A stretch of 64,000 bases of DNA. Origin: Escherichia coli (GTDB lineage: Bacteria > Pseudomonadota > Gammaproteobacteria > Enterobacterales > Enterobacteriaceae). Within the stretch, counting starts at the first letter, position 1. Every line of letters starts with the position of its first letter. The notes below the pieces were generated by a model. The model was given only the letters and a program-made list of their open reading frames with translations, ran no database searches and was not told the origin of the DNA. Shown here one piece after another: positions 49,098 through 49,631 of this stretch. The stretch is taken from the NCBI RefSeq assembly GCF_030013205.1, contig NZ_CP122648.1; one strand, written 5' to 3'. The position numbers were made by a program, and so were the translations under genes.

Positions 49098-49631
49098 ATG
49101 TTAAGTGAAAACGCAAAAGATATCGAAGGATATGAAGGACTGTACGCCATCACTAATGATGGTAGAGTTTACTCGCATTCAAGAGTAAATTTGAGGGGAC
49201 GTCTTATTAAGGGTAGGTGGCTGAAGCATAATCATAACGTAAATGGATATAAGTATGTGTGTTTATATAAGGATGGCGTAAAAAAGAACATACTAATACA
49301 TAAGCTTGTTGCATCTCACTTTGTTGGTGGATTTGCTGAAGGGTTACAGGTAAATCATATAGATGGTGATAAATATAATAATAACTATCTAAATCTTGAA
49401 TGGGTTACTCCATCAGGAAACATCTCACACTCATATGGATTGGAGTCGAGAGGTAATGTAAAAGGAGAAAGGAATGGTAATTCTAAAATATCTAATGATG
49501 ATGTCATAAAGATAAAAGAAATGGTTGCCAATGGATTTCCTCAGTGTGAAGTTGCTAAATTATTTGGAATTCACAATTCAAAGGTTAGTAGAATTGTAAA
49601 TGGCAAGGCATGGAGGCATGTTAATGGCTGA
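49098..49631 (+). CDS. HNH homing endonuclease (NUMOD4 + HNH + C-terminal HTH)
   Basis: [17 protein letters not shown] (NUMOD4-like), [22 protein letters not shown] (HNH); markedly AT-rich relative to flanks. Confidence 0.75.

Follow-up and report, generated by a model that had tools for sequence, protein, structure and literature searches.

The window, by which we mean the whole stretch of 64,000 nucleotides of E. coli DNA analysed here, was found to be 100% identical to the chromosome of the porcine E. coli K_EC180 and to a set of porcine ETEC/O139:H1 genomes. It carries a remnant of a P22-like prophage, which adjoins the csc sucrose genes and torI, and whose genes are arranged in the order of a terS-gp4 fusion, an intact gp10, an endonuclease gene, a gp26-gp20 fusion, a gp16-like gene, arc/mnt, and the head-binding domain of a tailspike. 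In the first of these, the N-terminus of the terminase small subunit (a terS fragment) is fused to a C-terminal fragment of gp4 at 47345-47818. The gp10 gene, which encodes the tail hub or 'packaged DNA stabilization protein', occupies 47658-49076 on the plus strand and is complete, its 472-aa product matching the Pfam family Phage_stabilise over profile positions 1-468 of 469 (1.4e-280). It is followed by the endonuclease gene and then by the first ~126 codons of the tail needle gene gp26 (49624 to about 50001, plus strand), which encode an N-terminal part of the protein matching phrog_1219 over profile positions 1-127 of 233 (1e-64). A deletion has truncated gp26, whose remaining part runs at about 50001 into a C-terminal fragment of gp20 (approximately 50001-50582). 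In RefSeq, the truncated gp26 is described as 'phage tail protein, incomplete, missing C-terminus', and the gp20 fragment as 'acyltransferase, incomplete'. The matches to Phage_stabilise and phrog_1219 confirmed the position given in the initial annotation, between a gp10-like gene and a truncated tail-needle gene.

Further along the remnant, a 244-aa ORF at 52669-53403 on the minus strand turned out to be an artefactual upstream extension, of which only the C-terminal ~85 residues (Arc/Mnt ribbon-helix-helix) represent the real gene; RefSeq places an 86-aa Arc-family protein in this interval. The tailspike head-binding domain is cut by IS1 (53750-54253, minus strand), and the scar region extends over 53065-54253. 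The late-operon promoter and the activator region are missing from the remnant.

The gene at 49098-49631 encodes an I-HmuI-like HNH protein

The endonuclease gene lies at 49098-49631 on the plus strand, starts with ATG, and encodes a protein of 177 aa composed of a DNA-binding NUMOD4 domain at the N-terminus, an HNH_3 nuclease domain of the beta-beta-alpha-metal type, and a C-terminal helix-turn-helix (HTH). The product is identical to RefSeq WP_000947776.1, which is annotated as 'NUMOD4 domain-containing protein'. Through Pfam searches, we detected NUMOD4 (PF07463) at residues 7-57 (5.1e-13, 49.5 bits, with a curated cutoff of 23.4 bits) and HNH_3 (PF13392) at residues 67-108 (5.1e-10, 39.3 bits, with a curated cutoff of 24.8 bits), while the C-terminal HTH gave a sub-threshold match. 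The PHROGs search assigned the protein to phrog_59, 'HNH endonuclease' (2e-49). Both searches agree with the NUMOD4 plus HNH ORF of 177 aa proposed at the outset. A chance ORF was also considered for 49098-49631, and this reading was rejected.

By sequence, the sole relative with a solved structure was I-HmuI (1U3E; E 8.4e-21, residues 7-174 aligned), to which the 177-aa protein is about 31% identical. We then examined an AlphaFold2 model of the protein, built with 78 homologues, and found a mean pLDDT of 91.9; in its HNH region, two strands (84-87 and 100-103) are followed by a helix (105-114). Using Foldseek to compare this model with the PDB, 1U3E was the only match at E <= 0.001 (E 1.2e-09, probability 1.00, 179 columns, TM 0.53), the moderate TM value being expected because the protein is extended, composed of several domains, and modelled without DNA.

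In an alignment of the 120 closest database homologues, residues H68, N86, H87, N99, N108, and H111 were invariant or nearly so. Three of them, H87, N99, and N108, align with H75, N87, and N96 of I-HmuI, which answers in the negative the question raised earlier of whether the HNH catalytic residues are missing. The catalytic residues named for I-HmuI-like enzymes are D74, H75, and N96 (PMC12724721). The position of D74, which is a metal ligand in I-HmuI, corresponds to N86 here, and Asn was found at this position in 120 of the 120 closest homologues, so it represents the norm of the sub-family and not a lesion. N86 in place of D74 is a conservative change, and with the catalytic His and Asn kept, the 177-aa protein is a plausible active nuclease.

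The gene is inserted precisely between gp10 and gp26 and keeps their operon intact

The gp10 stop codon (49074-49076) is followed by a 21-nt leader read from the sequence, ATCGAAACTCAAGGAGTAGAT (49077-49097, plus strand), and then by the endonuclease ORF. The leader carries the Shine-Dalgarno sequence of the endonuclease gene, AAGGAG at 49087-49092, located 5 nt before the ATG. At the other end, the endonuclease stop codon TGA (49629-49631) overlaps the start of gp26 (ATG at 49624-49626), and the gp26 Shine-Dalgarno sequence, GGAGG at 49612-49616 on the plus strand, is located inside the last codons of the endonuclease gene, 7 nt before the gp26 ATG. Because the end of the inserted gene overlaps the gp26 ATG and supplies the GGAGG, translation of gp26 is preserved by the insertion; having its own ribosome-binding site and providing one for gp26 in its last codons, the gene therefore leaves the operon intact. 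The GGAGG and the stop/start overlap with gp26 have the same layout in all variants described below. The 21-nt leader is conserved in all six variants at the gp10/gp26 junction, and it also stands before a related gene at the gp4/gp10 junction.

At empty sites, gp10 directly adjoins gp26, the stop of one and the start of the other overlapping in TAATG, as seen in Sf6, HK620, CUS-3, Dewey, and UPF_BP1, and filled and empty gp10/gp26 junctions could be aligned to the base, revealing a precise presence/absence polymorphism. We found no sigma-70-like promoter upstream of the endonuclease gene on the plus strand and no Rfam match to an intron at the gene. The endonuclease gene is free-standing and has its own translation signals. 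The absence of an Rfam intron, the gene's own Shine-Dalgarno sequence, and the empty sites in related phages support the initial suggestion of an intron-less homing endonuclease insertion.

The last 106 codons of gp10 belong to the same segment as the endonuclease gene

The endonuclease ORF has a GC content of 0.348 and a GC3 of 0.27, compared with a GC content of 0.51-0.52 in its flanks (the first 1098 nt of gp10 and the next 600 nt), and the GC content of the window falls to about 0.33-0.35 at the AT-rich tract. That the ORF is AT-rich relative to the flanking genes, as first described, was therefore borne out, but the description does not hold for all of gp10: the tract starts at 48758, inside gp10 and ahead of the ORF. 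The last 106 codons of gp10 plus the stop (319 nt, 48758-49076, plus strand) form a low-GC 3' module with a GC content of 0.35 versus 0.52 upstream.

To the left of this module, nucleotides 1-1098 of gp10 are 94.5% identical to Sf6 and HK620, that is, of the ordinary E. coli P22-like type; nucleotides 1099-1416 share 55-60% nt identity and 62-63% aa identity with the same two phages, so that the gene is chimeric. We computed an identity profile of the window against 14 loci and found a sharp breakpoint directly 3' of TTCGATAT at 48757. Up to this position, gp10 is 91-100% identical among all E. coli loci; past it, the window is 46-70% identical to the loci that carry no NUMOD4-HNH gene at the gp10/gp26 junction and 95-100% identical to the gene-bearing loci. 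By these profiles, the last 106 codons of gp10 are a foreign allele and part of the imported segment. The mobile unit is about 870 bp long (48758-49623) and consists of the gp10 3' module, the 21-nt leader, and the endonuclease gene. Comparison with P22-like phages free of the insertion, which had been proposed for defining the boundaries, thus did define them, and the unit proved to be a larger cassette that includes the replaced 3' end of gp10. The left breakpoint is located at 48757 in the loci bearing the window's gene (variant A below) and at about 48787, some 30 nt further, in phage HZ41; since the two differ, more than one recombination event is recorded.

An IS element or transposon was considered for the insert and rejected: Pfam detected no transposase domain in the endonuclease ORF, and no terminal repeats were found at the cassette ends, the only repeats being short ones of 10-13 nt elsewhere.

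The phage HZ41 is a deposited genome of an isolated phage (its record is marked UNVERIFIED) that carries a sister cassette. When the gp10 tail was compared with phages by tblastn, HZ41 alone scored above 67%. A protein search with the gp10 tail returned mostly partial proteins, and a 77% match among them again has a NUMOD4-HNH gene downstream. Neither the tblastn of phages nor the protein search found a lineage with the low-GC gp10 tail but without an endonuclease gene.

Occupancy of the gp10/gp26 junction and variants of the endonuclease gene

By megablast, the endonuclease gene was found in 35 of 5426 complete E. coli genomes, and the gp10-gp26 region in about 920. The window's gene thus occupies 35 of the ~920 regions, more than 90% of loci lacking it, and it has no nucleotide-level match among deposited phages. 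Most P22-like genomes are therefore without it; the initial annotation had regarded its presence at this position in most of them, with phage-like composition, as telling against an insertion. About half of the 35 carriers belong to a single clonal lineage of porcine ETEC/O139 and several of the rest are O111, so the independent backgrounds number about ten. A query with the flanks only yielded no near-isogenic pair of filled and empty alleles; the best empty allele reaches only 96% identity in its flanks, and a recent homing event is therefore not directly documented.

The gp10 3' module was present in 55 E. coli genomes, and a NUMOD4-HNH gene was located directly downstream of it in all 55. 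These genes fall into variant A, the window's gene (35 genomes), variant B (16 genomes), and variant C (4 genomes). Variant B is the HZ41-type gene, whose product is 52% identical to the window protein, and variant C is WP_042048397, which is 46% identical. Further variants with 89%, 62%, and 54% aa identity were found in Citrobacter sp. C411 and two Logan contigs, and have the same 21-nt leader, the gp26 overlap, and the low-GC gp10 tail. In the Citrobacter and metagenome loci, the low-GC tail of gp10 is 81-95% aa identical, whereas the N-terminal part of gp10 is only 70-84% nt identical. The 77% match from the protein search described above is located on a frameshift-ridden ENA contig, where the module is again followed by a NUMOD4-HNH gene. 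The linkage between module and gene thus holds in Citrobacter and in three metagenome loci.

Other endonuclease genes at gp10 and elsewhere in P22-like phages

The gp10/gp26 junction and gp10 itself are insertion hot spots for endonuclease genes. In phage vB_EcoP-683R2 (URC09345; locus L003, 2180-2674), a gene with HNH_3 (4e-16) and an AP2-like match that is below the cutoff (8e-5) is located between gp10 and gp26. This gene type, which is unrelated to the window's gene, was also found in 16 E. coli genomes, and it adjoins a canonical gp10 tail. The 683R2 gene is mis-annotated as 'endolysin', and its last codons reuse the native 3' end of gp10, GAGGATTGAGTAATGG. Other inserts annotated as 'HNH endonuclease' stand by a canonical gp10 in the gp10-gp26 interval of NZ_CP062211 (L3Cip3) and NZ_CP146665 (MS 115-1), where the junction spans exceed those of empty sites by about 560 and 670 nt, respectively; they are likely to be additional endonuclease types at the gp10-gp26 hot spot.

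At the other end of gp10, a 194-aa NUMOD4-HNH gene was found at the gp4/gp10 junction of Salmonella phage UPF_BP1 (locus L013, 1100-1990) and of E. coli K56-43-un (locus L010, 86-878), in an insert that corresponds to 47658-47777 of the window. Upstream of this insert, 93 nt of the resident gp10 5' end are left as a stub, and the cassette supplies a new, diverged 5' end of gp10 (60-65% nt identity), which is fused in frame. The gene shares the leader and the first ~47 residues with the HZ41-type gene. In phage N7 (locus L022, 1801-2322), a NUMOD4-HNH relative that is 45% identical to the window protein is located between the genes for antitermination protein Q and the holin, which makes this the third insertion site of the NUMOD4-HNH gene family in Lederbergvirus genomes.

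The endonuclease gene is less diverse than its flanks

We compared eight variant A loci from different prophage backgrounds, in which gp26 falls into three classes by length (702, 849, and 954 nt). The endonuclease protein was identical in all eight; the gene contained eight segregating sites, of which eight were synonymous and none non-synonymous. Across these loci, the mean pairwise nt difference was 0.7% in the leader and endonuclease gene, 1.8% in the gp10 tail module, 6.0% in the N-terminal part of gp10, and 11.6% in the first ~200 nt of gp26, so that diversity in the endonuclease DNA is lower than in the flanks by a factor of 8-16. Low diversity of a gene lying in diverged flanks is the pattern that would be expected of a functional element that moved in recently. 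The synonymous nature of all eight sites, together with the invariant catalytic residues in the 120 homologues, points to selection on the protein.

In ETEC6333 and ETEC6334 (NZ_CP122600 and NZ_CP122604), which belong to the same porcine lineage as the window, an IS3-family element interrupts the endonuclease gene about 51 nt from its start (~49148), so the remnant can do without the gene. Most probably, the endonuclease gene is not expressed in the remnant and is a passenger that was inherited recently. The larger cassette, the junction as a hot spot with several endonuclease variants, and a gene most likely unexpressed in the remnant all go beyond what the initial annotation had described.

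Discussion

We read the gene at 49098-49631 as a free-standing I-HmuI-type homing endonuclease gene, carried in a cassette of ~870 bp at the gp10/gp26 junction, which spread by homing and is a passenger in this remnant; we give this reading a probability of about 0.8. The endonuclease gene is a promoter-less cassette at the gp10/gp26 junction of a P22-like late operon. During co-infection, or infection of a lysogen, a P22-like genome that has no cassette would be nicked or cut by the enzyme in its gp10-gp26 region. The damage would be repaired by homologous recombination with the cassette-bearing genome, and in this way the endonuclease gene would be copied together with the diverged gp10 tail. 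The gp10 tail would travel along because crossovers form only in the homologous DNA outside it, and plausibly it does not contain the recognition site. We infer that the gp10 3' module is a cleavage-resistant replacement allele; it differs from the canonical tail almost everywhere, so the comparison of sequences does not narrow the target site. Counting against the homing reading are the Asn at the position of the metal ligand Asp74 of I-HmuI, the small number of independent backgrounds, and the IS3 element that interrupts the gene in two strains. The homing mechanism is proposed by analogy with I-HmuI and the Mob and Seg enzymes of T4, and ordinary recombination could also move a module, P22-like phages being highly mosaic.

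This last consideration leads to the strongest competing explanation, which we regard as unlikely, namely that the gene and the gp10 tail form a passive mosaic module spread by ordinary homologous or illegitimate recombination, with a nuclease that is inactive or irrelevant. A passive module would accommodate the strong mosaicism of P22-like genomes, the divergence of 6-12% and the three gp26 types in the flanks of the eight loci, the failure of our searches to yield a filled and empty pair with near-identical flanks, and the disruption of the gene by IS3 in two strains without obvious consequence. However, it would leave unexplained why the eight segregating sites are all synonymous and the catalytic residues invariant in 120 homologues, a pattern indicating selection on the protein, and why the diversity of the gene is 8-16 times below that of the flanks. 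At least six variants and an unrelated HNH-AP2 gene occur at one junction, and a sister gene occurs at the other end of gp10; such a multi-variant junction is typical of site-specific endonuclease genes and not of neutral modules.

A domesticated nuclease, kept by the prophage or by the host of the remnant as a weapon against cassette-less P22-like phages through superinfection or marker exclusion, seems to us considerably less probable still. Precedents exist, as expressed I-HmuI-like enzymes exclude markers of infecting Skunavirus (PMC12724721) and T4 endonucleases exclude T2 markers, and more than 15 porcine ETEC/O139 genomes carry the ORF intact and 100% identical despite a badly deleted prophage. 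This identity within the porcine lineage, however, fits recent clonal descent equally well, and such a role is opposed by the missing late promoter and activator region, the lack of a sigma-70-like promoter upstream on the plus strand, and the disruption by IS3 in two strains of that same lineage.

A packaging-associated HNH, which would assist the terminase in the manner of HK97 gp74 or the GVE2-type enzymes and be required for DNA packaging, would suit an HNH nuclease sited in the late (morphogenesis) operon, but the presence/absence polymorphism effectively refutes it. More than 90% of P22-like loci do not have the gene, among them those of the viable P22, Sf6, and HK620 and also of CUS-3; it lies between gp10 and gp26 and not by the terminase genes, and its only relative of solved structure is I-HmuI and not of the GVE2 or HK97-gp74 type. 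P22-like phages, moreover, package by a headful (pac) mechanism.

Within the homing reading, we tentatively propose, as an idea that is possible but on balance doubtful, that the cassette is a two-part gene drive directed against an essential tail protein. The nuclease would be permanently coupled to the cleavage-resistant last 106 residues of gp10, it would exist in at least six specificity variants (46-89% aa identity, with shared termini and leader), and the sister lineage would mirror this arrangement at the 5' end of gp10. If this is true, gp10 would be a battleground in which competing endonucleases overwrite each other's flanks, and the sequence diversity of the tail hub would be driven in this way across phages of Escherichia, Citrobacter, and Salmonella.

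For annotation, the ORF at 49098-49631 is to be read as a parasitic endonuclease gene that stands outside the P22 tail machinery, and the unusual 3' end of gp10 belongs to the same imported segment as the endonuclease gene. With filled and empty alleles defined, the locus lends itself to experiment in a model phage family, that of P22, Sf6, and HK620. It also suggests the hypothesis that the mosaicism of temperate phages is due in part to homing endonucleases that overwrite the ends of an essential tail-hub gene. A full-text literature search found no earlier account of a homing endonuclease at gp10/gp26 of P22-like phages, although a prior mention is possible. The gain is incremental, because intronless homing and marker exclusion have long been established in T4, SPO1, and Skunavirus.

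Comparison with known systems

The closest characterized relative, I-HmuI of Bacillus phage SPO1 (1U3E), is of the same length class (174 aa versus 177 aa here) and has the same three-part architecture. It is an intron-encoded HNH nicking enzyme whose gene resides in a group I intron, whereas the gene in the window is free-standing between two genes, and its metal ligand D74 is replaced by Asn here. In genomic arrangement, the cassette resembles the free-standing endonuclease genes of T4, of which MobA and MobE (HNH) and SegF and SegG (GIY-YIG) are likewise promoter-less cassettes between conserved genes, with divergence of the adjacent genes and presence/absence among related phages as found here. 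In T4, 'intronless homing' is accompanied by marker exclusion; here the phage is a temperate P22-like podovirus, the site is in the tail-gene cluster, and homing is proposed from the pattern of the insert. The co-travelling segment is a variable tract in T4, whereas here it is a fixed block of 319 nt (106 codons plus stop).

The I-HmuI-like genes of Skunavirus cluster by insertion site and cause marker exclusion (PMC12724721). As in the present case, these HNH genes of lactococcal phages are free-standing, with several enzymes per location and a variable C-terminal region (PMC12724721); they differ in phage group and insertion sites, and exclusion was assayed there in vivo (PMC12724721), whereas the present case is built on sequence comparison. 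Nearest of all are the sister genes in Lederbergvirus genomes (HZ41, vB_EcoP-683R2, UPF_BP1, and N7), which are likewise HNH_3 genes at P22-like gene junctions. Their products range from 52% identity to the window protein in HZ41 through 45% in N7 to 30% in 683R2, and the HZ41-type gene shares with the window's gene the gp10 tail module, the leader, and both protein termini.
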